Shown: one piece after another, positions 1 to 22,100 of the stretch
Layout: each line of letters begins with the position of its first letter
How positions within the stretch are numbered: the stretch's first letter is position 1
From: a virus
Taxonomy: Duplodnaviria; Heunggongvirae; Uroviricota; Caudoviricetes
Reading direction: 5' to 3' (one strand)
DNA: 27,343 nucleotides
IMG/VR virus record: IMGVR_UViG_2695420565_000003
Made by a program: the position numbers and the translations under genes
The notes under the pieces: generated by a model
What the model was told of the DNA's origin: nothing
The model's database searches: none
Seen by the model: the letters and a program-made list of their open reading frames with translations, nothing else

Positions 1-127
1 CTCCTCCGGCAGAAGCAGAAAAAGCTTATTATGCTTCCATCGGAAACGATGATCTGGCAGCCTGAGTTCACAGATAAAACACTCTCCAGGAAACCCGGGG
101 CGGTTCAAACAGATTAGCTCTCTGGAT

Positions 128-547
128 TTGGCTAAAGAATTTGGAAAGAGACATCAAGATGTTTTGCGTGACGTTAGGTTAGTTTCTAAAAATACAGGAA
201 TTGCTTTTGTTGAATCTGTGTATGTAGATTCCCAAAATCGAAAAAAGTGTCACTATATGCTGTGTGGACAATTAGCAGATGCGATGTATAAACGCTATAA
301 CGGCTTACGTTTTGGTTTATCTACTGCCGAAAAGATTGCTCTTAACACTATAGAACAAGTTTTAGGTATCAACCTGATTCGCCAGTGTCGGGTGTTAAAC
401 TATCGAATTGATGGTTATGATCCGGTTAATAATATAGCTTATGAAATTGATGAACCAGAACACCAGTACAAGAAAGAGCAAGACGAGATCCGTCAACGAA
501 GAATTGAAAATGAGTTAGGATGCAAGTTTGTCCGAATCAAAGTATGA
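128..547 (+). CDS. Rha-like DNA-binding N-terminus fused to a DUF559/Vsr-like PD-(D/E)xK nuclease-like C-terminus; putative homing-endonuclease-like or regulatory protein, with TTG start or a frameshifted 5' end
   Basis: The N-terminus 'LAKEFGKRHQDVLRDV' matches the Rha-family signature (FGKRHxNVLRDI) as I recall it. The C-terminus 'YRIDGYDPVNNIAYEIDEPEH...DEIRQRRIENELGCKFVRI' resembles the DUF559/Vsr-type endonuclease core. There is no ATG at the 5' end (the track start at 128 is TTG) and the frame is open back to 53. Stop is TGA. Confidence 0.5.
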   Translation: MAKEFGKRHQDVLRDVRLVSKNTGIAFVESVYVDSQNRKKCHYMLCGQLADAMYKRYNGLRFGLSTAEKIALNTIEQVLGINLIRQCRVLNYRIDGYDPVNNIAYEIDEPEHQYKKEQDEIRQRRIENELGCKFVRIKV

Positions 548-551
548 TTTT

Positions 552-580
552 AGCCTCGCCTAGTGCGGGGCTTTTTTGTT
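552..580 (+). terminator. Rho-independent terminator after the 128..547 gene
   Basis: Stem AGCCTCGC / GCGGGGCT (one G-U pair), loop CTAGT, followed by TTTTTTGTTTT. Confidence 0.6.
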
Positions 581-592
581 TTCTATAGGCAT

Positions 593-617
593 AAAAAAAG
601 CCACTCCGAAGAGTGGC
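593..617 (-). terminator. Rho-independent terminator for the minus-strand genes, back-to-back with the + strand terminator
   Basis: On the minus strand this reads GCCACTC-TTCG-GAGTGGC followed by TTTTTTT (the complement of the A-run at 593-599). Confidence 0.6.
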
Positions 618-632
618 AAAGAGAATCAAAAC

Positions 633-866
633 TCAAAAACCTGTTGCTTCTACGATCTGACCATCACCGATCTGAACATAGAATTTAATATCTAACTTCT
701 TGATATTTTTATAGAATTGAGCTACCGATATAGCGTGCTCACTAAGAATCTGTTCTTTCGCTTCCTTCCCGCGATCCGCTGTATAGTAAGCGTAGGCAAT
801 ATCAGCCATCTGTTCAGCGTTAAAACGGGCAGGGCGACCGCGAGTAGCTTTAGTAGTCATAGTCAT
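633..866 (-). CDS. Small putative DNA-binding protein (77 aa)
   Basis: Open frame with an AT-hook-like 'TRGRPARF' and a helix-turn-helix-like segment 'LSEHAISVAQFYKNIKK'. TGA stop. Co-directional with the 895..1500 gene. Confidence 0.45.
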   Translation of the reverse strand: MTMTTKATRGRPARFNAEQMADIAYAYYTADRGKEAKEQILSEHAISVAQFYKNIKKLDIKFYVQIGDGQIVEATGF

Positions 867-894
867 TTCTCCAAATTAAAGTGAATGTTCACCT

Positions 895-1500
895 TTATTT
901 AGAGGACTTACATTTTATCGGAAAAAGTTCTCCATCGTCAACCGACATAAAGAACTCTGCCTTAATCCCGTACTTCTTCAACCGTGAATAGTATGTACCC
1001 CGACTTATATCAACCTTGCGCAGCACTTCGAAGAACTCTTTAGGATTCCTGTAATAGTGGCTATATCGCACGTTAGCGAGTTCTACAAACAATTCCCTTG
1101 TATCACCATAGCCTTTCTTAAAAGCCACGTTACGATAGCGTGTAATGGCATGATTCAATCTCTTCTGTTTAAGCACTTCCCTAATCGGTGTCCACTGCAA
1201 CCGATAGATTGGACCGTCATCCACTCGATAGAATCGCTTAATGTCAAAATCAAACCATTCACGAACTCTATTAAACTCTGTCTGTGATGTTCGGTGCTTC
1301 TTAAAGAAGTTGTGAATATCGGTATACCCATGATCGCGATACAACTCGATTAAAATCTGTTTAGCTTCCTCGCGACTAAAGCCGGATGTTGTGTAATCAG
1401 TCTTCTTGTGATGGTGCTTAACTGGCAAACGATATTCATGATCGGTACAACAAGAAAAGGCTAATTCTAATACATCTCTTTGTTGCTGATTAATTAGCAT
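895..1500 (-). CDS. Hypothetical protein (201 aa) with a C-terminal HTH-like segment
   Basis: Long open frame divergent from TerL. '[19 protein letters not shown]' resembles a helix-turn-helix. Function unknown. Confidence 0.5.
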
Positions 1501-1587
1501 ACAACCCCCTTAAATCTTAATACCCGTATTTATCAAAATATCAACAATTTAATAAATACCTTCATATTTCGTAATGAGGGTAATTAC

Positions 1588-3492
1588 ATGAAACTGATTT
1601 CAAATAAGGCAAAATTAAAAAAGATTCTTAAAAATGCCGCAAAATATATCACTCCACCGCCTAAGCTCCTTCCTTCTGAATGGTGCGAAGCTAATATGGT
1701 GCTGGTAGATGGTCCTCAAGCTGGGGATAAAGTTAAATTACTGTCATTCCAGAAAGGCATGATTGATGCTCCTTTCCTTGAGAACAAGAAAAAGTATGTT
1801 CTGATGACCAGTGCGCAGATCGGAAAGACTACCATCCTGAACGGCATCCTGTTTAACCAGATGGCTAACGATCCATGCAATATGATTATCGGACAATCAA
1901 CCGCTAAAGAAATGTCTCAATATCTCGCGGGTAAGATCCGACCGTCTATCGAAGCATGTGATGCATTAAAAGACGTGGTTACAGACAAGAATGATCGCAA
2001 TGCGGTTAACAACAATAACCAGCTACAGCTAAAAACGAATCACTTCCTGTACATGGTATCGCTTACCAGTCCATCAACCCTACGTGGTAAGACCGCAAAG
2101 GTTGGGTTGCTTGACGAAATCGATGCTGCTACAGCCTCAGAAGAAGGTGATCCGGTGGCACTGGCTGCTAACCGTTTAACTACCTTTGGCGATGAAGGCC
2201 GATTAGTCGTATCCAGTACCCCGACCAGTAAGCTGGGAAGCATTAACCAGCAATGGTTATCAAGCGACATGCGTATGTTTTTTGTTCCGTGTCCGCATTG
2301 CGGGGAACACCAGGTGATCGAGTGGGAAAACGTTCAATTTGAATGGCGTAACATTGATGGTAAGAACTTACCCGATCCTGATACCGCTCGTTATATTTGC
2401 CCCCACTGTAAGAACGCATGGACAGAAGGGGAACGAATCAGGGCAGTAGCACAAGGCGAGTGGAGAGCAACCCGTGAAAGTGAAGTAGCCGGATTCTGGA
2501 TCAGTCGTCTGTATTCACCTTTCAGCACGATTCGCGCTTGTGTGGTTGATTTTAGTCATGCGTGGCAATCCTTTGATTTACAATCCTTTTTTAACACCGT
2601 GTTAGGCAAGGTATACGACGATCAGGACACGGCAGTAGAAGCAAATGAACTGGAACAACTCAAAACAGATGTTTCTATCGAGAATATCCCTGATGACGTG
2701 ATTTTCTTGTGTGCGGGTACTGACCAGCAATTAGATCGCGCAGAAACTACAATCATGGGCGTGGCAAAGGATAAGATTTATATTCTGGATCATCGCAGCT
2801 TTTACGATCATAACTGTGAACGATATGAATCCCCTGTATGGGATAGATTAATCAACTTCCATAAAACCAAATTTACTACTGTATCGGGTGATCGTGTTCC
2901 TATGCTCGCCAGCTTCCTTGATACATCGAACGGTCGATTCACTCAAGCTGGATACCGTATTTGCGGCAAGTGGAAGAACTTACACGCTATCAAAGGTAGT
3001 TCTGCTGGTAACGCTCCGATCATTCCGGTTAAACCTACCCGCACAGGTGGTCATGAATTGCTTATGTTGGGTGTTAATGTGGGTAAAACTGCATTTCGTG
3101 AAATGTTGGCTAGGAACCTGAAAGATAATCCTCATATTGGCTTAGAAATATCAGACACCGTTCCTGATGATTATCTCGATCAGCTTTTAAGTGAATCTGT
3201 CAAGCGTACTACTACTGGCGTGAGATGGGTAAAGAACCCAGGCGTTAGGAACGAGGCGCTCGACTGCGCCGTGTATGCTACAGCGGCTTCTCGCTACGTC
3301 CTTTCAAAAATGTCATGGGAAAAACTCGAAGCCATCAAAGATAGTTTGAACCGTGAACCAGAAGAATCCGTAGAAGCTCCTAAATCGCAATCTAACGAGC
3401 AAATCGAAGAAACTAAGCCAATCACACGACCACAACGTAAAAACATCGCCAGACGCCCAAATAGAGGCCGTAGCTGGGTAACATCGTTCTAA
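1588..3492 (+). CDS. terL: Terminase large subunit, lambda gpA family
   Basis: 634 aa. The N-terminus 'EWCEANMVL...[10 protein letters not shown]...[11 protein letters not shown]' parallels lambda gpA as I recall it. Also present are the 'CPHCGEHQ' and '[10 protein letters not shown]' zinc-ribbon-like motifs, '[17 protein letters not shown]' and C-terminal '[16 protein letters not shown]' (lambda: RNEALDCFVYALAALR). RBS GAGGG upstream. Confidence 0.92.
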
Positions 3493-3498
3493 TAACTC

Positions 3499-3516
3499 GC
3501 CGTCCTTCGGGGCGGC
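3499..3516 (+). other. RNA stem-loop with a UUCG tetraloop; weak terminator or transcript-stabilising hairpin
   Basis: GCCGTCC-TTCG-GGGCGGC (7-bp stem, one G-U pair). No clean T-run follows. Confidence 0.3.
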
Positions 3517-3564
3517 TTACTCCTAAATATTGTTAATCCAATAACAATTAAATAAGGGGTAATT

Positions 3565-4062
3565 ATGAGTTTAGAACTAATTCCCTTAGTAATTCGTAAA
3601 GGCGAAAAAATCACGCTGGCGAATGAAGAGGGTGTAACAATTCAGGTAGGAAATAGTAATAAAGGTATCATTTATCAGGTTGATGATACTCCGGCTAATC
3701 ACGAGATTAAAACGTTAGACTTTCCAGAAGGTAAATATACCATCTTAGCAACTTTTGACGATGAACTGGTATCAATGCAGGAATTAACTGTTTTGCCAGT
3801 ATTCGCCAAACAATCCAAAAAAGAATATCTGCGGGAAACTATCGCCTTAATCGAGCAAGTTATTTTCGCCCGTTTATCTGGGGACGAAGCCGCATTATCA
3901 GCAATGACAATAAAAGGGAACTCATTCGCTTATGAGTCATTGGGTGTTCTCCAGCAATTGAAGACTGATTATGAACGTCAGTTATCTAAATTAATTCAAG
4001 CCGAACGACGTAAACAGGGAATTAGCCCGATTAAAAATATCAAATTACGTCTTACGCGATAA
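3565..4062 (+). CDS. Hypothetical head-module protein (165 aa) between terminase and portal
   Basis: ORF preceded by the conserved AAGGGGTAAT-type RBS. No recognisable motif. Its position corresponds to lambda gpW but it is larger. Confidence 0.55.
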   Translation: MSLELIPLVIRKGEKITLANEEGVTIQVGNSNKGIIYQVDDTPANHEIKTLDFPEGKYTILATFDDELVSMQELTVLPVFAKQSKKEYLRETIALIEQVIFARLSGDEAALSAMTIKGNSFAYESLGVLQQLKTDYERQLSKLIQAERRKQGISPIKNIKLRLTR

Positions 4063-4072
4063 GGGGTAAATC

Positions 4073-5584
4073 ATGTTTAATCTTTTTCGACGCAAAAAGG
4101 CGGTAGAAACTCCAGTTAAAACTAATCACCGCCAGCAACAACCAAAAATTTTCATCGATAAGCAAGTAGAAAAATTCCAGAAAGACCTATCTCAACGGAG
4201 TTTAGGACTGGTTGGTGATCGTATTGATGGATCACTTCAACAAGACACCATTACAGGAACCTTCAATAAGGCTCTCAAATCGAACGGTAAGCGCCTTTAT
4301 GATCAGGGTCGTACTCTGGCCTTAAACACTTCCGTAGGCAGTCGCTACACGCAATACATCACCGATATGGTGGTAGGTACTGGCCTAGATCCGAAGCCGT
4401 CAATCGTTAAATCGAATGGCAAACTTGATAGCGCACTGAATAAGCAGATCGAAAATGCTTTCTGGAAGTGGGCGCAGAATGCTAAACGATTCTCTCGTAA
4501 CGGTCGCTTTAACTTCCGTGAATTGCTGGTAATGGCTGAACGTGAGCGCGTTATGGGTGGTGAGTGCTTCATCGTTTTAACCAAAGAAAACAATGAGTTA
4601 AATGTTTCTATCCTGTCTGCTGATAAGTGCGACTGGTCGCTAAACCGTGAAATAAGCAAAGAGCGTGCGATATATCAAGGTGTGGAGTATGACGTAGAGA
4701 CGATGAAGCCCGTAGCATACTGGTTTCGTAAAATCAACCTACTGACTCAGACCTACACTGGTGATAACTATCGCGTCGATGCTTCGCAAGTATGCCATTA
4801 TTATCAACCACTTACAGCCGAATCCCTGCGTGGTGTGACTGACTTCCTGCCAGTGATCAAGGATATCGCACATCAAGACGCATTCCGCGAAACTGCGATC
4901 GTCCAGAAACGTATTGCAGCTAGCTCTATGGGCTTTATCGAACGTCCGAAAGATTCTGGTGACGATTTTGATACTGGTGAAGATGATGAACAATATCAAG
5001 CGCCGGAAGTAGTACAGGATTTTGCACCGGGTACTATTCAGGAATTACCGGAAGGGGCAACGATCAAGAGCATCCAGGCGACGCAAAGCGGTGATGACTT
5101 CAATTCGTTCAATGATGCGATGTTTACTAGCGTATCAATGGGCTTAGGCGTGTTCAAACAGGGCTTAACGGGAGATTGTTCACAGATCAACTACTCAGCC
5201 GCACGTTTTGGTGAACTACTTCAACGTAACCGCGTTAAAGCACTTCAAAACAAATTGATTGAAACAGTGGTGTTGCCAATTTTCGAAGCATATCTACGCC
5301 ATTATTCCGCGCGTGGTATGGTTCCGATTCGTATTACTGCAATTCCGCATATTATCGATAATACAACTATTATTCGTCCGCGTTTTGAGTCCGTCGATGT
5401 TATTAAAGATGTGAACGCTGATATTGCTTTAATTGATAAGGGACTTAAATCACGTACTGCCGTTATATTAGAACGTGGTGATGATCCTGAAAAAGTATTC
5501 TCAGAGATTCAAGCCGAAAAGAGCGCACTAAATATTATCGTTGATGGTGAGGGTGAAGAAAAAAATTCCCCAGCCGATCCCTAA
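4073..5584 (+). CDS. Portal protein
   Basis: 503-aa ORF immediately downstream of TerL and upstream of the protease/capsid gene. Size and position are typical of portals. RBS AAGGGGTAAAT. Assigned mainly on synteny. Confidence 0.75.
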   Translation: MFNLFRRKKAVETPVKTNHRQQQPKIFIDKQVEKFQKDLSQRSLGLVGDRIDGSLQQDTITGTFNKALKSNGKRLYDQGRTLALNTSVGSRYTQYITDMVVGTGLDPKPSIVKSNGKLDSALNKQIENAFWKWAQNAKRFSRNGRFNFRELLVMAERERVMGGECFIVLTKENNELNVSILSADKCDWSLNREISKERAIYQGVEYDVETMKPVAYWFRKINLLTQTYTGDNYRVDASQVCHYYQPLTAESLRGVTDFLPVIKDIAHQDAFRETAIVQKRIAASSMGFIERPKDSGDDFDTGEDDEQYQAPEVVQDFAPGTIQELPEGATIKSIQATQSGDDFNSFNDAMFTSVSMGLGVFKQGLTGDCSQINYSAARFGELLQRNRVKALQNKLIETVVLPIFEAYLRHYSARGMVPIRITAIPHIIDNTTIIRPRFESVDVIKDVNADIALIDKGLKSRTAVILERGDDPEKVFSEIQAEKSALNIIVDGEGEEKNSPADP

Positions 5585-5629
5585 TAACCAACGGGGGCGC
5601 AATGCCCCCAATTAATTAAAGGTGATTAA

Positions 5630-7639
5630 ATGCTTAAATTTCGCCGCGATCTTAACGGTTACGGTGGAGTTATTAACGAAGGGCATAACGATCAATACGA
5701 ATTTGAAATTGCTTTCTCCAGTGAACAGCCGTATCAGCGCCAATTCTGGGATGAGCAAAATCAAGAGATGGTGGTATTAGATGAAATTCTGGTACATACC
5801 CCGGAAGCGGTTGATCTGTCTCGTCTGAATAATAACGCTCCGTTGCTGTTCAATCATAATTTCGATAATCACATTGGTGTCGTTTGTAACGCTCGAATCG
5901 ATGCGGATAACGTAGGTCGTGCTCTGGTTAAATTCTCTAAGCATGGCACTTTGGCTAATGATATTCGCAATAAAGTCATTGAAGGTACGATGGAAAAAAT
6001 TTCTGTCGGTTATGACATTAAAGAATATCACATCGACTACACCAAAGGACAATTGATTGTTACTAAGTGGGCACCCTATGAACTCTCATTTGTCACCGTT
6101 CCCGCAGACGATACGGTCGGTTTAAATCGCTCTCTAAATACTATCACAGTTAATTTGGAGGCTAAACGCGATATGACTAAAGAACAAATCGAAGAAATCA
6201 AAGAAGAACAAGAATCCGCTCAGGTTGAAGAAACTCCGGTAGAAGAAAATAAAGAATCGGAAGTAGAAGAAACTCAAGAGCGCCAAGTTGAAGAGAATAA
6301 AGAAGATGAAAATCTCGAAGACGGAAAAGACGCTGAACATCCTGAAAGTGTTGATGATGATAGTTCAACTGTTCGGGAAACAGAAGAAGTAAAAGAAGAA
6401 CGTGAAGCTGCTCCGGTTGAAGAAGAAAAAATCGAAGAAGTGGCTGAACGTTCCGAAGAAGACGAATTAGAAATTCGCGAGATCGCTCGCGAACTTCTAA
6501 TTGACGACGAAGAATTGAAACGCGCATTGGCAATTAAAGACATGACGCCGGAAGCATTCCGCACTAAGGCACTAAATAATCTCGTCAATGCTCAACGTAA
6601 TAACGAACAACAAATTAAGGACTCTAAAATGGAAAAAACTTTTGACCTGAACAACGTAATTCGCTCTCTGGTAGATGGTGAAGCTCTGGGTGCTAACGAA
6701 GCCGAGTTTTCTGCAATGGCTGCTACTGCAACTATGCAGCGTGGTCGTGCTGCTCGTGGTGGCTCTGTATTCGTTCCGGCTGCTGCTATGCGTGCTGCTG
6801 CTGCTGGTAACACCAAAGCTACTCTGACTGCTGTTACTGATGAAAAACTGCTGACTGAATCCTACATCGAAATGCTGCTTCCTGCTTCGTGTCTGGGTCG
6901 TCTGGGCGTGACCGTCCTGTCTGGTCTGAATAGCCCGATCGCTGTTCCGAAAATGACTGCTTCTAGCGTTGAAGCCTTTGGTTTTGTTGATGAAAATGGT
7001 GCTGCCCCCGAGTCACATGCGGAATTTTCGAACGTGAAAATGGCTCCGAAAACTTTTGCTGGTGGCAACCCGATCAGCCGTCAATCTCTGAAAACTGTTC
7101 CTAATATCGCTACCCTGATCACTGATCACATTAACAAAGCTGTTCGCATCAAACTGGAACAACTGATTCTGTCTGATAAAGAAAATGCTCGTGGTCCGGC
7201 TGGTCTGGTTAAACAACTGGTAGACGCTAGCCGCGTGACTAAGAAAACCGCTTTCAGCTACAAAGACCTGTTGAAAGAGATTGCCGCATTGACCGACGCT
7301 GGCGTTCCTGCTCAGGCGATCAAGTTCGCTATGAGTGGTGCAACTGCTGCTGAACTGGAATCTACCCCGAAATCTGATCGTGGTGACGCTCAAGGCTTCA
7401 TTATGGAAAACGGCAAAATTGCTGGTTATGAAGTAGTTACTTCTGGCGTTATTCCGGCAGATACGATCGTTCTGGGCGATTTCAGCGGCATTATCGTTGG
7501 GGAATGGGGAGGTCTTGAGCTAGATCTGGACGATTCAACGTACCGTGCACAGTCTGCGATCGTGCCTCGTGTATGGCTGGATTTGGACTACGTTGTAGCA
7601 CAGCCGGAAGCTCTGAAAGTTCTCCAGATTGGCGAATGA
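5630..7639 (+). CDS. Fused prohead protease (HK97/S78-type) + acidic scaffold/delta region + major capsid protein
   Basis: The N-terminal ~170 aa carry HK97-protease-like motifs ('LLFNHNFDNHIGVV', 'KISVGYDI', 'YELSFVTVPADDT'). A highly acidic E/K-rich coiled-coil segment follows, then a ~330-aa capsid-like C-terminus. It is one uninterrupted frame. Stop is TGA. Confidence 0.85.
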   Translation: MLKFRRDLNGYGGVINEGHNDQYEFEIAFSSEQPYQRQFWDEQNQEMVVLDEILVHTPEAVDLSRLNNNAPLLFNHNFDNHIGVVCNARIDADNVGRALVKFSKHGTLANDIRNKVIEGTMEKISVGYDIKEYHIDYTKGQLIVTKWAPYELSFVTVPADDTVGLNRSLNTITVNLEAKRDMTKEQIEEIKEEQESAQVEETPVEENKESEVEETQERQVEENKEDENLEDGKDAEHPESVDDDSSTVRETEEVKEEREAAPVEEEKIEEVAERSEEDELEIREIARELLIDDEELKRALAIKDMTPEAFRTKALNNLVNAQRNNEQQIKDSKMEKTFDLNNVIRSLVDGEALGANEAEFSAMAATATMQRGRAARGGSVFVPAAAMRAAAAGNTKATLTAVTDEKLLTESYIEMLLPASCLGRLGVTVLSGLNSPIAVPKMTASSVEAFGFVDENGAAPESHAEFSNVKMAPKTFAGGNPISRQSLKTVPNIATLITDHINKAVRIKLEQLILSDKENARGPAGLVKQLVDASRVTKKTAFSYKDLLKEIAALTDAGVPAQAIKFAMSGATAAELESTPKSDRGDAQGFIMENGKIAGYEVVTSGVIPADTIVLGDFSGIIVGEWGGLELDLDDSTYRAQSAIVPRVWLDLDYVVAQPEALKVLQIGE

Positions 7640-7768
7640 ACTAACGTAGAACCATCTGAACCTTCCCCCGATTTGGGGGAAGAAAATCTGATTCCTGAGC
7701 CGGAAGAAGAATCCCAGACGGTTAAGGCGAAAGCCACAGCTAAAAAACAGCGTAAAACTAAAGAATAA
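7640..7768 (+). other. In-frame 42-codon extension after the capsid TGA (candidate read-through peptide), ending in TAA
   Basis: The peptide 'TNVEPSEPSPDLGEENLIPEPEEESQTVKAKATAKKQRKTKE' continues the capsid frame. It is paralogous to the extension after the 13125..13598 gene. Confidence 0.4.
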
Positions 7769-7774
7769 TAATTA

Positions 7775-7801
7775 GCCCTGCCTAACGGTGGGGCTTTTTT
7801 G
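7775..7801 (+). terminator. Rho-independent terminator after the capsid gene and its extension
   Basis: GCCCTGCC-TAAC-GGTGGGGC followed by TTTTTTG. Nearly identical to the terminator at 13731-13758. Confidence 0.7.
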
Positions 7802-7830
7802 TATGTAAATACTCCATAAAGGGGGTAACT

Positions 7831-8121
7831 ATGTTCAAATTATCAGAATCACAATTATCAAGAATGTTCCGAAGTGCTCCTGTATTTTCGGTGGAAGGTG
7901 GTAAATCAATTCGTGCTTATCATGAAATTACTACTACCGACGAACAAGGGGTAATGACAGAGACAGAATTTTTATTTTGTCGTGAGGGAGACTTAAAGCA
8001 GGGTGATATTGTCATTGTAGAAAATCAGCGTTTCAAAGTTCAATACGTTAAGCGCAATGGTGACAATACAACTGATTGCTTTATCACTCTGGCAGGGGGT
8101 ACACATGCTCGCTACCGTTAA
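7831..8121 (+). CDS. Putative head-tail connector / head completion protein (96 aa)
   Basis: Small ORF directly after the capsid gene with RBS AAGGGGGTAACT. Assigned by position only. Confidence 0.45.
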   Translation: MFKLSESQLSRMFRSAPVFSVEGGKSIRAYHEITTTDEQGVMTETEFLFCREGDLKQGDIVIVENQRFKVQYVKRNGDNTTDCFITLAGGTHARYR

Positions 8122-8527
8122 TAACATGCCGAGACTGAAAATCAAACGCGCCTTGCAAGATATTATCGAACAAGATTTAGGTCTGGCTTTAAACGTAGAA
8201 CAAACTCAGCAAGGCTTTAGTGATGATGTGGTTTGTTGGATTATTGGCATGAATGAAACTTACACTAGGGTCCGTGGCGGTAATGCAATGCAAGCTGAAT
8301 GTGTTATCGAAATGCAATTATATTCTCAGATTCATGAAACCAAAATTCATGAGGGTATTTGCCAGATAATCCAGATTCAGCCGGATAACCCACGTTTTAA
8401 AGATTTGGGCTTCTCAATTTCAGATATCACTCCAGTAGCTTCTAATACCGATTATGACGATGATTCTAGTGATGGGGGTATCGTTGGGACACTTAGCCTT
8501 AAATTTTCTTATCTAGCGCGTTTTTAA
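8105..8527 (+). CDS. Putative neck / tail-completion protein (140 aa)
   Basis: The track ORF begins at 8057, but the ATG at 8105 is preceded by a GGGGG RBS and overlaps the upstream stop (ATGCTCGCTACCGTTAA). Assigned by position. Confidence 0.4.
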   Translation: MLATVNNMPRLKIKRALQDIIEQDLGLALNVEQTQQGFSDDVVCWIIGMNETYTRVRGGNAMQAECVIEMQLYSQIHETKIHEGICQIIQIQPDNPRFKDLGFSISDITPVASNTDYDDDSSDGGIVGTLSLKFSYLARF

Positions 8528-8536
8528 GGGGTAATA

Positions 8537-19179: not shown

Positions 19180-22100
19180 TGGGATTTGAAATATTGGTAG
19201 GCGCGGTTATTGCTGGTGCGTCTGCTGGGATGGCTGCTGCTGCAACATTTTCTGTTATGACCGCAGTCGCTATCGGTATGGCTGCTGGTGCAATGACCTT
19301 GATCGCTTCCACTGTAGGCGCACCAAAAACACCGAAAGTACAAAGCCCAGATAATGCGGTGACACTAGGAACATCAAACGATCCTAAGACAGTATTACCC
19401 GTTCTTTTCGGTACTACCCGCACAGGTGCAATCTGCGTTTACAAAGCAATTTCTAAGCAAGAAAACAATAAGTTAGTGCAAATCTTCGCAATTGCCGAGG
19501 GTGAAATCGACCATTACAAAGCACTGTTTATCGATAACAAAAATGTTCTTGTTGGTAAGAACATGACGATCCGTGATGGTGTACTGGACAAAGGCAACAT
19601 TAAAGAAGAATACCGGAAAGTTTTAGAGGTTGAGTTCCGCACGGGTAAGAATCCTAACACCGCTTTGTCACTGGCAAAACGTCACTTAGGGTCAGACTGG
19701 AACGACAACTACAAAGGCAATGGTATTGCAACCATGTGTATTGTGTTACGCCGTGATGATAAATCTCTTGCTGCTGGTGTTGATATTCTCCAACCAAATA
19801 GCCAGGTAGCGGTCGATGTTATGGGCTTAAAAATCCGTAACCTTGAAACCAATGCTATTGAGGCTAGCACTAACGGCGTGGACCAGATTTTCCACTACCT
19901 AACAAATGAAAAATATGGCTTATCCGTACCAATTGAAAACATTAACGTTGATTCATTCCTGAAAGTACGTAAGCAAGTACGTCAGATGGACCTACATTCG
20001 AACGGTGCATGTGATCCGAACGCCAGCTTTAAAGAGAACTTGACTAGCCTTATGCAGACTTTCGGCGGGGTGATGTTCGAATCCTTCGGAAGAATTACCC
20101 TGAAACTGGATGCTCCTGATATTGTTAAGCATACATTCAATGAAGACAATATCATGATGGGTAAGGTATCACTGAAAACAGGTGGCACTAACGGTTATTT
20201 CAATACCATTAACGCGATGTATCAAGAACCATCAATTGACTATTCAGAGCAAATGCTACGTTATCCGGCTGATGCTGAAAACGATGCTACTATTCGTCAA
20301 GATGGTCGAATTATCGCTAAGGATATCGAATATCGTTTTGTTAAGTCTAAAGCCCAGATTGATAAACTTGCGAGCATTGAACGAAATAAATCTCGTATCA
20401 CTCAGGTTATCAGCTTTATGACTACTGACGCATTCACTGCCGAGGTGTGGGATGTTATCAGCGTAACCTATGATGAATTAAAACTGAATAATTCACTTTG
20501 GCGTATTACTGCAATTGACCGCTCGATTGATTCTGGTATTGCTGGGATGATGACGATCACCGCCACAGAATATAATTCTCAGGTTTATACTGACCTGAAC
20601 TATGCGGCTAACCCAGATAACCGACCAAGTGGTTTACCGGATTCAATGACAGTACAGAAGCCTACTAATTTCAGAATTAAGGCAACTGGTGAAACAATCT
20701 ATGGTAAGAACGTTACTTTAACATGGGATGCGCCGGAAGATTTTAACCGCTACGGCTTCCAGATTGATTACCGTGTTAGTGGATCGCCTAACTGGATTAA
20801 GCTGGGACAGACTTCACAGCAAATTTTCAGTGTCAGTGCACTGGCAAAAGATCGTTCTTATGATTACCGAGTTTGTGCTTTCGGTATCATCGCGAGATCT
20901 GATTGGGTAGAACTGATTAACCAGAATCCTACTGTTACCTATGAATTACCGACTCCGGTTATTCGAATCAAAAATCAGGGTAGCACGCCAGGAACTTTCG
21001 AAGGTAATGATCTGATTATCGAATGGGAAAATCAGCAACAATTAGATGTGATGATCAACGGTGAAACTAACAAGTTTAGTGACCTGTTTGAAGCATACAT
21101 TATCAAGGTGACTAACAAGGCTGGTAAGTCTATTCAGTACCGTACCCGCGATCCTGAATCATGGACTTATACACTTGATATGAACCAGTTTAACGGCCTT
21201 TCGCGACAACTTACGGTAGAAGTATCGGCTAAGGGCTATAACAACTCAGAGAGCGCCCCAGCGCGTTTAGTGGCTATTAACCCACAGCATAAAGGTATTA
21301 AAGGTTTTAGTGCGCGTGGTGGTTTTAATGCTGCTTTCGTTAGCTGGAACGGTGATGTTCTGGAACAGGACTATGCTGGGACGATTGTACAATTTGCAAC
21401 CGATAGCACTTTCTCCGATGCAAGGGCGGTAAGCACGAATAGTGTTAGCCATACATCTTTCGACTTGACGGACGGGGATTATTATCTTCGCGCGGCACAT
21501 TACGATATTTTCGGTATGGATGATGCTGTTTGGTCTGAACCGTATTTCATGCAAATGAAATCTACCATTAGCTGGGACGATCAGGACAAAGAAGCACTGG
21601 AAGACCTGATCGGTTTACAAGATCGATTAGATGAAACTATCGCGGATGCTATTAAGCAAGCTGGCGCTAATGCCGATGCTAAAATTGATGCAATGCATAA
21701 GCAAATCACTACTGAAACGGGTAAAACAGTTCAAGCCTCAGCCGATACTCTCAAGAGTCTGATTGCTTCTGGTGATAAGGCAAGTTCAACTAAGATTGAT
21801 CAGGTTAAAGCTGAACTGAAAGGCGATATCACCAAAGAAGTTAGTGCATCTGCTACTACCCTGAAACAAGCTATTGCTACCAGTGAGGCAGCAAGCGCAA
21901 CTAAGATTGATCAAGTTCGGGTAGAAATGGATGGCAAGATTGCTGGTGTGAATCAGGAAGCAGATGTAAAAATCGATGCTTTGAAGGGAACCATTAACAG
22001 CAAATATAACCTGGCAGTTAATGCAGATGGTCGCGTGGCTGGTATTCACATGAGCGCAAGCAATGATCCGGCACAACCGACTAAAATCATCTTTACGGCT

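Follow-up and report, generated by a model that had tools for sequence, protein, structure and literature searches.

The 27,343-nt stretch of tailed-phage DNA analysed here (IMG/VR record IMGVR_UViG_2695420565_000003, Caudoviricetes; the window) contains one open reading frame (ORF) that most probably is the head-shell gene of a temperate, siphophage-like Escherichia coli prophage and encodes a capsid polyprotein, a reading to which we assign a probability of about 0.8. The translated frame yields 669 amino acids (73.7 kDa) with zero internal stops and joins an HK97-type prohead protease, a scaffold-like middle region and a major capsid protein (Table 1). A sequence-only reading of this DNA had proposed these three parts in one uninterrupted 669-codon frame, in agreement with the domain matches now found at both ends and with the intact frame in relatives. 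Right behind the protease domain a candidate internal start suggests that a shorter chain without protease is also made, and an open extension behind the stop codon may be reached by read-through.

The N-terminal part matches the Pfam family Peptidase_S78 (PF04586, Caudovirus prohead serine protease) at residues 40-162 (E = 2.1e-10, 41.4 bits, gathering cut-off 21). For the full-length protein an AlphaFold2 (AF2) model was calculated from an alignment of 104 family members, with a mean predicted local distance difference test score (pLDDT) of 82.9. As Foldseek searches with this model were swamped by capsid matches, residues 1-398 were modelled separately, and the folds were confirmed one by one for both ends of the protein; the N-terminal part shows the assemblin or prohead-protease fold. 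The alignment of 104 sequences, which share 26-90% identity, has no invariant columns other than H76, S125 and E151, and from their position in the motifs NH.., SVGY and PYE.S we infer that they are the catalytic residues. The HK97-protease-like motifs noticed in the sequence-only reading hence belong to a domain with a profile match above threshold, the expected fold and an invariant His/Ser/Glu set. Profile searches of the N- and C-terminal halves and structure prediction, suggested there as a check, place a protease at the N-terminus and a capsid protein at the C-terminus; the N-terminal domain is a protease and not the bare delta domain that had been named as the opposing outcome.

Behind the protease the chain becomes strongly acidic. 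It had been described as a ~150-aa extremely acidic, coiled-coil-like region; the acidic character stands, the length is closer to 120 aa, and instead of a coiled coil the region is mostly predicted to be disordered. pLDDT values below 50 were obtained for residues 169-182, 198-252 and 255-270, and residues ~169-270 are modelled as an acidic, disordered linker between the protease and a helical domain. For the latter (residues 271-398), Foldseek returned no specific structural match. It lies upstream of the residue that matches the first residue of the virion chain of Dinoroseobacter phage vB_DshS-R4C (R4C) and is presumed to be the scaffolding or delta-like part that is removed on maturation. 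From its position and by analogy with the HK97 delta domain, the middle region may serve as the assembly scaffold.

The C-terminal part matches Phage_capsid (PF05065) at residues 413-666 (E = 1.5e-24, 87.3 bits, cut-off 24.2) and is modelled with pLDDT values mostly above 90. By sequence it matches the PDB entry 8gta (E = 5.1e-23), which is also the best Foldseek match (E = 2.6e-18, template modelling score 0.70 on the target), followed by the capsids of RcGTA, HK97, D3 and SaPI1; the top 50 Foldseek matches are all capsids. 8gta is the R4C virion chain, and the R4C shell has been described as 415 copies of an HK97-like protein. The chain comprises 268 residues, exactly residues 362-629 of the 629-aa product of gene vBDshSR4C_006 (gp006), and residue 362 aligns to residue ~398/399 of the window protein. 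In the AF2 model, residues 401-407 are the sole low-confidence stretch separating the helical domain from the capsid fold. From this stretch and the R4C chain start, a cleavage would therefore be placed roughly at residues 392-407, leaving the C-terminal ~28.7 kDa; that the mature virion protein is a C-terminal fragment is known from the deposited structure of the homologue R4C only. As H76, S125 and E151 are invariant and the R4C virion holds the C-terminal 268 residues only, self-processing of the polyprotein to a C-terminal capsid protein, which the sequence-only reading had claimed, is strongly implied and, by inference, well supported.

The reading frame itself is kept among relatives. 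It is open in all eight full-length E. coli genes that were translated; the alleles diverge by 5-14% in DNA (86-95% nucleotide identity), and synonymous exceed non-synonymous changes in the protease and capsid parts. The Shine-Dalgarno (SD) motif of the full-length ORF is unchanged in seven of the eight alleles, the mosaic allele L099 differing upstream. The fusion gene was found in 49 of 5,426 complete E. coli genomes, on the chromosome every time, and annotation by the Prokaryotic Genome Annotation Pipeline gives a single coding sequence in all rows listed among these carriers. The 120 closest clusters at 90% identity comprise proteins of 655-673 aa that are 93-100% identical to the window protein. 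An identical protein from E. coli is already present in NCBI/UniRef (RefSeq), under the names 'phage prohead protease, HK97 family' and 'phage major capsid protein'; names like the second conceal the protease and the scaffold. As the frame is kept in the E. coli alleles, in the 49 genomes and in more than 120 clusters, a missed stop, frameshift or sequencing error is excluded on this comparison, and no stop or frameshift splitting the ORF, an outcome that the sequence-only reading had set against itself, was seen across the E. coli copies and protein clusters.

Table 1. Features of the fusion gene and its flanks (positions in the window; aa, amino acids)
Feature	Position	Strand	Residues	Remarks
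Shine-Dalgarno motif of the full-length ORF	5619..5626	+		AAGGTGAT; 3-nt spacer before ATG 5630
Fusion ORF, prohead protease + scaffold region + major capsid protein	5630..7639	+		ATG start; TGA stop 7637-7639
Protease domain, HK97-type S78, assemblin fold	5690..6133	+	aa 21-168	
His76 codon, putative catalytic histidine	5855..5857	+	76	invariant in 104 sequences; also invariant in a first alignment of homologues
Ser125 codon, putative catalytic nucleophile	6002..6004	+	125	motif ISVGY; invariant in 104 sequences
Glu151 codon, putative third catalytic residue	6080..6082	+	151	motif PYELS; invariant in 104 sequences
Candidate internal start (Met182)	6157..6175	+		GGAGG 6157-6161, 11-nt spacer, ATG 6173-6175
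Acidic region, mostly predicted disordered	6170..6529	+	aa 181-300	43% D+E, net charge -37
Helical domain, six helices	6440..6823	+	aa 271-398	pLDDT 83-97 (AF2 models)
Second, weaker candidate start (Met334)	6616..6631	+		TAAGGA 6616-6621, 7-nt spacer, ATG 6629-6631
Predicted hinge and maturation-cleavage region	6803..6850	+	aa ~392-407	
Major capsid protein, HK97 fold	6824..7636	+	aa ~399-669	~28.7 kDa mature
In-frame open extension, candidate read-through tail	7640..7771	+		42 codons, 7640-7765; closed by TAA TAA 7766-7771
Perfect 8-bp hairpin	7662..7682	+		CTTCCCCC-gattt-GGGGGAAG; 22 nt past TGA; z -1.7 for the 73-nt segment
Intrinsic terminator-like hairpin and T-run, predicted end of the capsid transcription unit	7774..7801	+		9-bp stem, 6 GC pairs, TTTTTT

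Candidate start codons within the frame

In a first alignment, every homologue carried a methionine soon after the protease domain, most of them with an SD-like motif before it. In the window this is Met182. An internal start was tested for on the window, 11 phages and 60 IMG/VR contigs; dereplication of these 72 loci at 60% identity left 43 clusters. The tested codon was the ATG that comes first in frame behind the motif W.P.E...[PAS]ADxx[VI]G. SD-like motifs were defined as at least 4 nt long with a spacer of 3-13 nt, and any codon in the same 80-aa region served as background, which controls for the Glu-rich sequence. The first ATG lies at a median of +25 aa behind the protease domain. It is preceded by an SD-like motif in 36 of the 43 clusters, with 8.3 expected and a maximum of 22 reached in 200,000 simulations; with motifs of at least 5 nt, 23 clusters were observed against 3.5 expected. 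At other downstream in-frame ATGs, an SD-like motif is present in 15% of 532 cases. The distances between SD and ATG peak at 6-8 nt, and seven clusters are without an SD before the first ATG. The conserved methionine alone was discarded as evidence: a Met within 45 aa is expected in 75% of cases, and 76% of 113 protein-only representatives have one. As this matches the null value of 0.75, only the SD enrichment counts.

Within E. coli, Met182 is present in 120 of 120 clusters, and the Glu codon inside GGAGG is the rare GAG (GAA:GAG 69:10 in the ORF). Allele L099 (634-2646, E. coli CFSAN061761) carries GGAG-N8-GTG at the protease/scaffold boundary. It differs from the others by 46 synonymous and 90 non-synonymous changes in residues 1-180 and is near-identical downstream, i.e. 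it holds a different protease module, with the recombination joint exactly at the protease/scaffold boundary. A nested product starting at Met182 is fairly probable on this sequence evidence; it would have 488 aa and 53.0 kDa and would consist of scaffold and capsid without the protease. The Met182-type ribosome-binding site appears to be conserved across the fusion family and, as far as we found, is undescribed for it; in a literature search of partial coverage, nothing relevant turned up on capsid read-through or nested starts among its members.

Nested starts of this kind have precedents. In lambda C/Nu3 and in UL26/UL26.5 of the herpes simplex virus HSV-1, a second in-frame start codon behind the protease domain yields an abundant scaffold that lacks the protease, next to a rare form that has it, and for gp17/gp17.5 of the archaeal virus HFTV1 the nested start was shown by ribosome profiling. 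The sequence-only reading had concluded a fixed 1:1 stoichiometry from the covalent fusion. With an SD and ATG conserved right after the protease domain in most family clusters, this is doubtful, as the copy numbers of protease and capsid would uncouple. A packing estimate, which rests on an assumed cavity radius of 190-210 Å, points in the same direction: if all 415 subunits were full-length, ~18 MDa would lie inside the prohead and fill 57-77% of its cavity, against 31-42% for the nested product.

A second methionine, Met334, is likewise found in 120 of 120 clusters, and its product would have 336 aa (35.3 kDa). The TAAGGA located 7 nt upstream is kept in two E. coli alleles that encode differing peptides (..IKDSK and ..INKEQI, each followed by M). 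Across the wider family, SD motifs at the Met334 position show no enrichment and remain at background level. Met334 may, as a weak candidate, be a lineage-specific start.

The open frame behind the TGA

The capsid protein ends with ...LQIGE, followed by the TGA and, if this is read through as Trp or another residue, by TNVEPSEPSPDLGEE. The 191-nt 'intergenic' region behind the TGA, up to the start of the next gene at 7831, opens with an in-frame extension, composed of an acidic and Pro-rich linker and a Lys/Arg-rich end. It was compared in 14 E. coli genomes with 10 distinct DNA alleles; besides the window, it is seen at L003, L094-L099, L218-L223, L131, L157, L207 and L213. The extension measures 81, 84, 99, 126 or 132 nt (27-44 codons), each length being divisible by 3. 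In-frame stops are absent from all 10 alleles, with 1-7 stops in the other two frames. In 14 of 14 genomes the capsid frame stops at a TGA with A as the next base, and a double stop closes the extension every time; the last capsid residues before the TGA vary among alleles. A metagenome scan with the 17-mer TAATAATTAGCCCTGCC gave 118 matches, four of them true homologues, and these four contigs agree with the extension pattern. In the wider family the stop is mostly TAA (48 of 72) and such an extension is lacking. TGA ACT is also the context of the annotated leaky stop in the record of a Qbeta-type coat gene, so that both a leaky UGA context and a conserved open extension are found, in each case by comparison only.

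The hairpin past the TGA (Table 1) has a counterpart in the short alleles, which carry an unrelated hairpin, CCGGAA-gaaa-TTCCGG, with an extended stem (z -4.0; L094 about 2321-2346); both types lie ~15-22 nt after the stop. Such a hairpin might stimulate read-through or might be an RNA processing signal. Rfam gave neither a selenocysteine insertion sequence nor another RNA element after the TGA at the gathering threshold, with chance-level matches only at E<=1. Further downstream, the terminator-like hairpin (stem-loop 7774-7795) is conserved among alleles. Programmed UGA read-through that adds a tail to a few capsid subunits is possible from these comparisons, at somewhat less than even odds.

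Assembly model and alternative readings

In the assembly pathway that we propose, the capsid domains would assemble, on the lambda-type portal whose gene lies directly upstream, into a T=7-type prohead; their N-terminal parts would point inward, and the helical and acidic regions would serve as an in-built scaffold in the manner of the HK97 delta domain. Crowding within the shell would activate the protease, which would cut near residues ~392-407 and then degrade itself and the scaffold; the fragments would exit and the ~29-kDa C-terminal protein would remain as the mature shell. Initiation at Met182 would supply the 53-kDa protease-less scaffold-capsid chain, so that only a fraction of the subunits would carry a protease, following the logic of lambda C/Nu3 and UL26/UL26.5, and occasional UGA read-through would put a 42-residue tail on a few subunits. 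That one frame gives rise to all of these, i.e. to three or four head proteins made in fixed proportions (full-length protein, Met182 chain, perhaps a Met334 chain, and the read-through form of the E. coli lineage), is doubtful as a whole.

Several observations weigh against the capsid polyprotein with a nested start. For the protease, the narrower equivalog TIGR01543 scores 37 bits, below its cut-off of 59, and the isolated protease domain, searched by sequence against the PDB, gave chance matches to SATB1 only. Both would fit a degenerate, inactive relic that serves as scaffold only, with cleavage by another enzyme or none, a reading that is very improbable. For the cleavage site, the 8gta model was begun from HK97 by homology, and the start of its chain need not equal a measured N-terminus. 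The NCBIfam model NF045541 (scaf_prot_MCP2, E = 1.1e-37) aligns to residues 22-345 only, with 130 bits against a cut-off of 525; as the match covers just the N-terminal half at a score far under the cut-off, the window protein is, as judged by these profiles, not a member of NF045541 but of a different fusion lineage (PHROG 617). For the internal start, the presence of a methionine is uninformative, the 11-nt spacer in the window is long, and about one third of the E. coli clusters have GGGGG instead of GGAGG, an allele that alters the amino acid and could still pair with the anti-SD via a G-U pair. The Salmonella phage Gifsy-2 reportedly assembles from a comparable tripartite gene, so that a pathway with the full-length protein only is physically possible. 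Such a strict single product, with only the 669-aa protein, a protease:scaffold:capsid ratio of 1:1:1 and internal SD-like motifs that are relics of separate genes or pause sites, agrees with one uninterrupted frame behind a good SD at 5619-5626, with the suboptimal internal spacer and with the seven clusters that lack the motif. We nevertheless consider it rather unlikely. SD motifs are four times as frequent as in the local background, their spacing resembles that of real start sites, and the simulations all stayed far below the number observed. The internal site persists in L099 despite replacement of the whole protease module, with GTG for ATG. In lambda, HSV-1 and HFTV1, the analogous protease-scaffold genes have nested starts as a rule, and full-length subunits alone would take up 57-77% of the prohead cavity by the above estimate. 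That the fusion is an assembly artefact, in which a missed stop or frameshift joins two or three genes, can practically be dismissed: besides the identical or near-identical ORFs of ~669 aa known from 49 complete genomes and over 120 protein clusters, a HMMER search of 1.84 billion representatives (clusters at 50% identity) found at least 518 family clusters at E<=1e-30; among the best 150 of these, nearly all are 565-700 aa long and matched across both halves.

For the stretch behind the TGA, an untranslated 3' region (3' UTR), open by chance or kept for a reason at the RNA level such as the spacing of hairpin and terminator, has slightly better than even odds in our judgement. The extension holds no ATG, synonymous and non-synonymous changes are roughly equal within it, an open frame of 42 codons has a chance of ~10% in AT-rich DNA, hairpins are present in both allele types and relatives outside the lineage have no extension. 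Against an untranslated stretch stand the five length classes, all multiples of 3 and free of in-frame stops in all 10 alleles, the TGA-A that is invariant despite variable preceding codons, the double stop that always ends the extension, and a stop context identical to the Qbeta-type read-through site.

The useful part of the analysis consists of these two leads on expression, the family-wide nested start and the lineage-specific candidate read-through. If the internal start is true, it would explain how fused genes avoid one protease per subunit in the prohead, and hundreds of phage lineages would join lambda, herpesviruses and an archaeal virus in the use of nested protease/scaffold starts. 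Translation of the extension, if it occurs, would provide a simple case of programmed read-through that decorates a double-stranded DNA (dsDNA) phage capsid in E. coli. Both together would combine, in one dsDNA phage capsid gene, the nested logic of lambda and herpesviruses with the scaffold-capsid fusion of HK97 and a Qbeta-like recoding.

Gene surroundings and relation to known systems

The fusion gene lies in a standard head module, behind a gpA-type large terminase (1588-3492), a head-tail joining protein (3565-4062) and a lambda-family portal (4073-5584); head-tail and then tail genes follow downstream. In one carrier genome, the module lies in a ~37-kb prophage that splits hicB and encodes a serine recombinase. 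A Rha-family regulator is located upstream of the terminase, the serine recombinase being at the opposite end of the prophage (window 128-547 and L003 flanks); the stretch from 547 to 1588 showed no recognisable gene for a small terminase subunit. In H53 (NZ_OW848980.1) the capsid gene is interrupted by the insertion sequence IS903B, and in L003 the insertion sequence ISKpn26 (19929-20909) lies two genes downstream of it; by these insertions some copies of the prophage are decaying. The listed ORF 8057-8527 overlaps the preceding gene (7831-8121) by 65 nt, its RefSeq relatives begin later, at the equivalent of ~8105, and its true start is probably an internal ATG. A tail-fibre gene of 1,204 aa (9453-13067), which encodes a trimerisation domain of the T4 gp34 type and, at the C-terminus, an S74 intramolecular chaperone, is placed between the head-tail genes and a lambda-like tail-tube gene (13125-13598), and is followed by a protein with a gp38-type adhesin N-domain (13773-14279); for a siphovirus-type tail module, both the placement and the combination are odd. 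Within the fusion ORF itself, a near-perfect palindrome of 38 nt (6465-6502) encodes ELEIREIARELLI and could form a hairpin of -20 kcal/mol. It was discarded as a functional element: it is allele-specific, other alleles retain only a short TTCGCG/CGCGAA core, and it is probably incidental.

At the family level, the protein matches PHROG 617 'major head protein' (E = 1.1e-92; residues 21-665 on profile positions 24-621 of 626), and phrog_4523 'major head and protease protein' matches its N-terminal 345 aa (E = 1.7e-40); PHROGs have no curated cut-off. A tblastn search found the same layout in 92 phage records, among them VP882, phiHAP-1, ep3, RcCronus, FoX phages, Mica, Persinger and Alexa, and the record of Murka is annotated 'major capsid protein and protease'. 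At the nucleotide level, the ORF had no megablast match among 50,697 phage records; relatives among them were found by protein only, the best with 43% identity. Protease, non-capsid middle and capsid in one frame are thus conserved in relatives, and what the sequence-only reading had taken as a departure from the usual separate genes belongs to a named, very large family with published precedents. As a kind, the fusion is not new, and by these matches the window gene adds to a documented and very common class; as a fusion it carries little weight, an uncharacterised, moderately common E. coli prophage being added to a well-populated class.

Two of the related records deserve comment. The closest one, at 43% identity, is PQ671644.1 ('Escherichia phage DCP80'; L002), a 141-kb sequence classified as Straboviridae/Tevenvirinae. 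Its first ~14 kb (1-13777) hold a gpA-type terminase, a portal and a fusion capsid gene, mostly annotated as hypothetical, and it may be a chimeric assembly or misclassified. In phiHAP-1, the 'major head protein' HAPgp05 (L009 1504-3312, 602 aa) is annotated with a start inside the protease domain and without an SD. As its frame is open further upstream, over 656 codons, the annotated N-terminus is probably too short. A CBASS (cyclic-oligonucleotide-based antiphage signalling system) preprint and an Avs-1 paper were considered as precedents of capsid fusions and set aside, as they concern protease-scaffold fusions or separate genes.

Full-length relatives at 23-31% identity are the capsid proteins of R4C (gp006, 8gta; 30% over the full length), Cronusvirus, Hapunavirus (VP882, phiHAP-1), Jilinvirus (ep3) and Foxunavirus. 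They share the three-part layout, the invariant His/Ser/Glu and the location behind the portal, and in R4C the order of TerL, head-tail joining protein, lambda-type portal and fusion gene is identical. Unlike this group, the window protein is 26-43% identical to any phage record, has a longer and far more acidic linker, and comes from an E. coli prophage in hicB. Gifsy-2 is said to combine a protease, a central putative scaffold and an HK97-fold capsid protein in one gene of a lambdoid T=7 phage, with a protease that is reportedly ClpP-like; the protease of the window is HK97/S78 assemblin-like instead. A gpD-like decoration protein, present in Gifsy-2, was not detected in the window. The phrase 'tripartite capsid gene' stands in the title of the Gifsy-2 study of Effantin et al. 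(2010, Virology 402:355). An HK97-type protease fused to a capsid protein is shared with the capsid polyprotein of Pseudomonas phage PAJU2 (UniProt P85500), for which autocatalytic cleavage was proposed, with NF045541 ('prohead protease/major capsid protein fusion protein') and with PHROG 4523, but the capsid half of the window protein has no match to those models. A 'protease-scaffold-capsid fusion' has also been described as a common feature of small actinophages.

With HK97 gp4 and gp5, the window protein has in common the protease family, the capsid fold and a removable N-terminal scaffold on the capsid protein. In HK97 the protease gp4 is encoded by a separate gene, and ~60-100 copies are targeted into the prohead. 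In the window, by contrast, the protease is in frame with the capsid gene, and the putative Met182 product would be the equivalent of gp5 (delta domain and capsid). The conserved SD and ATG are at a position equivalent to the nested starts of lambda C/Nu3, UL26/UL26.5 and gp17/gp17.5; in those viruses the capsid protein is a separate gene, whereas the nested product of the window would include it. A minor, C-terminally extended capsid subunit made by recoding is known from Qbeta A1 (UGA read-through) and from T7 10A/10B (frameshift), and the extension in the window is a candidate for the same. Qbeta, however, is a single-stranded RNA phage with a functional extension of 196 aa, and T7 uses a frameshift, while the extension described here is a candidate only, with 27-44 aa of low complexity.

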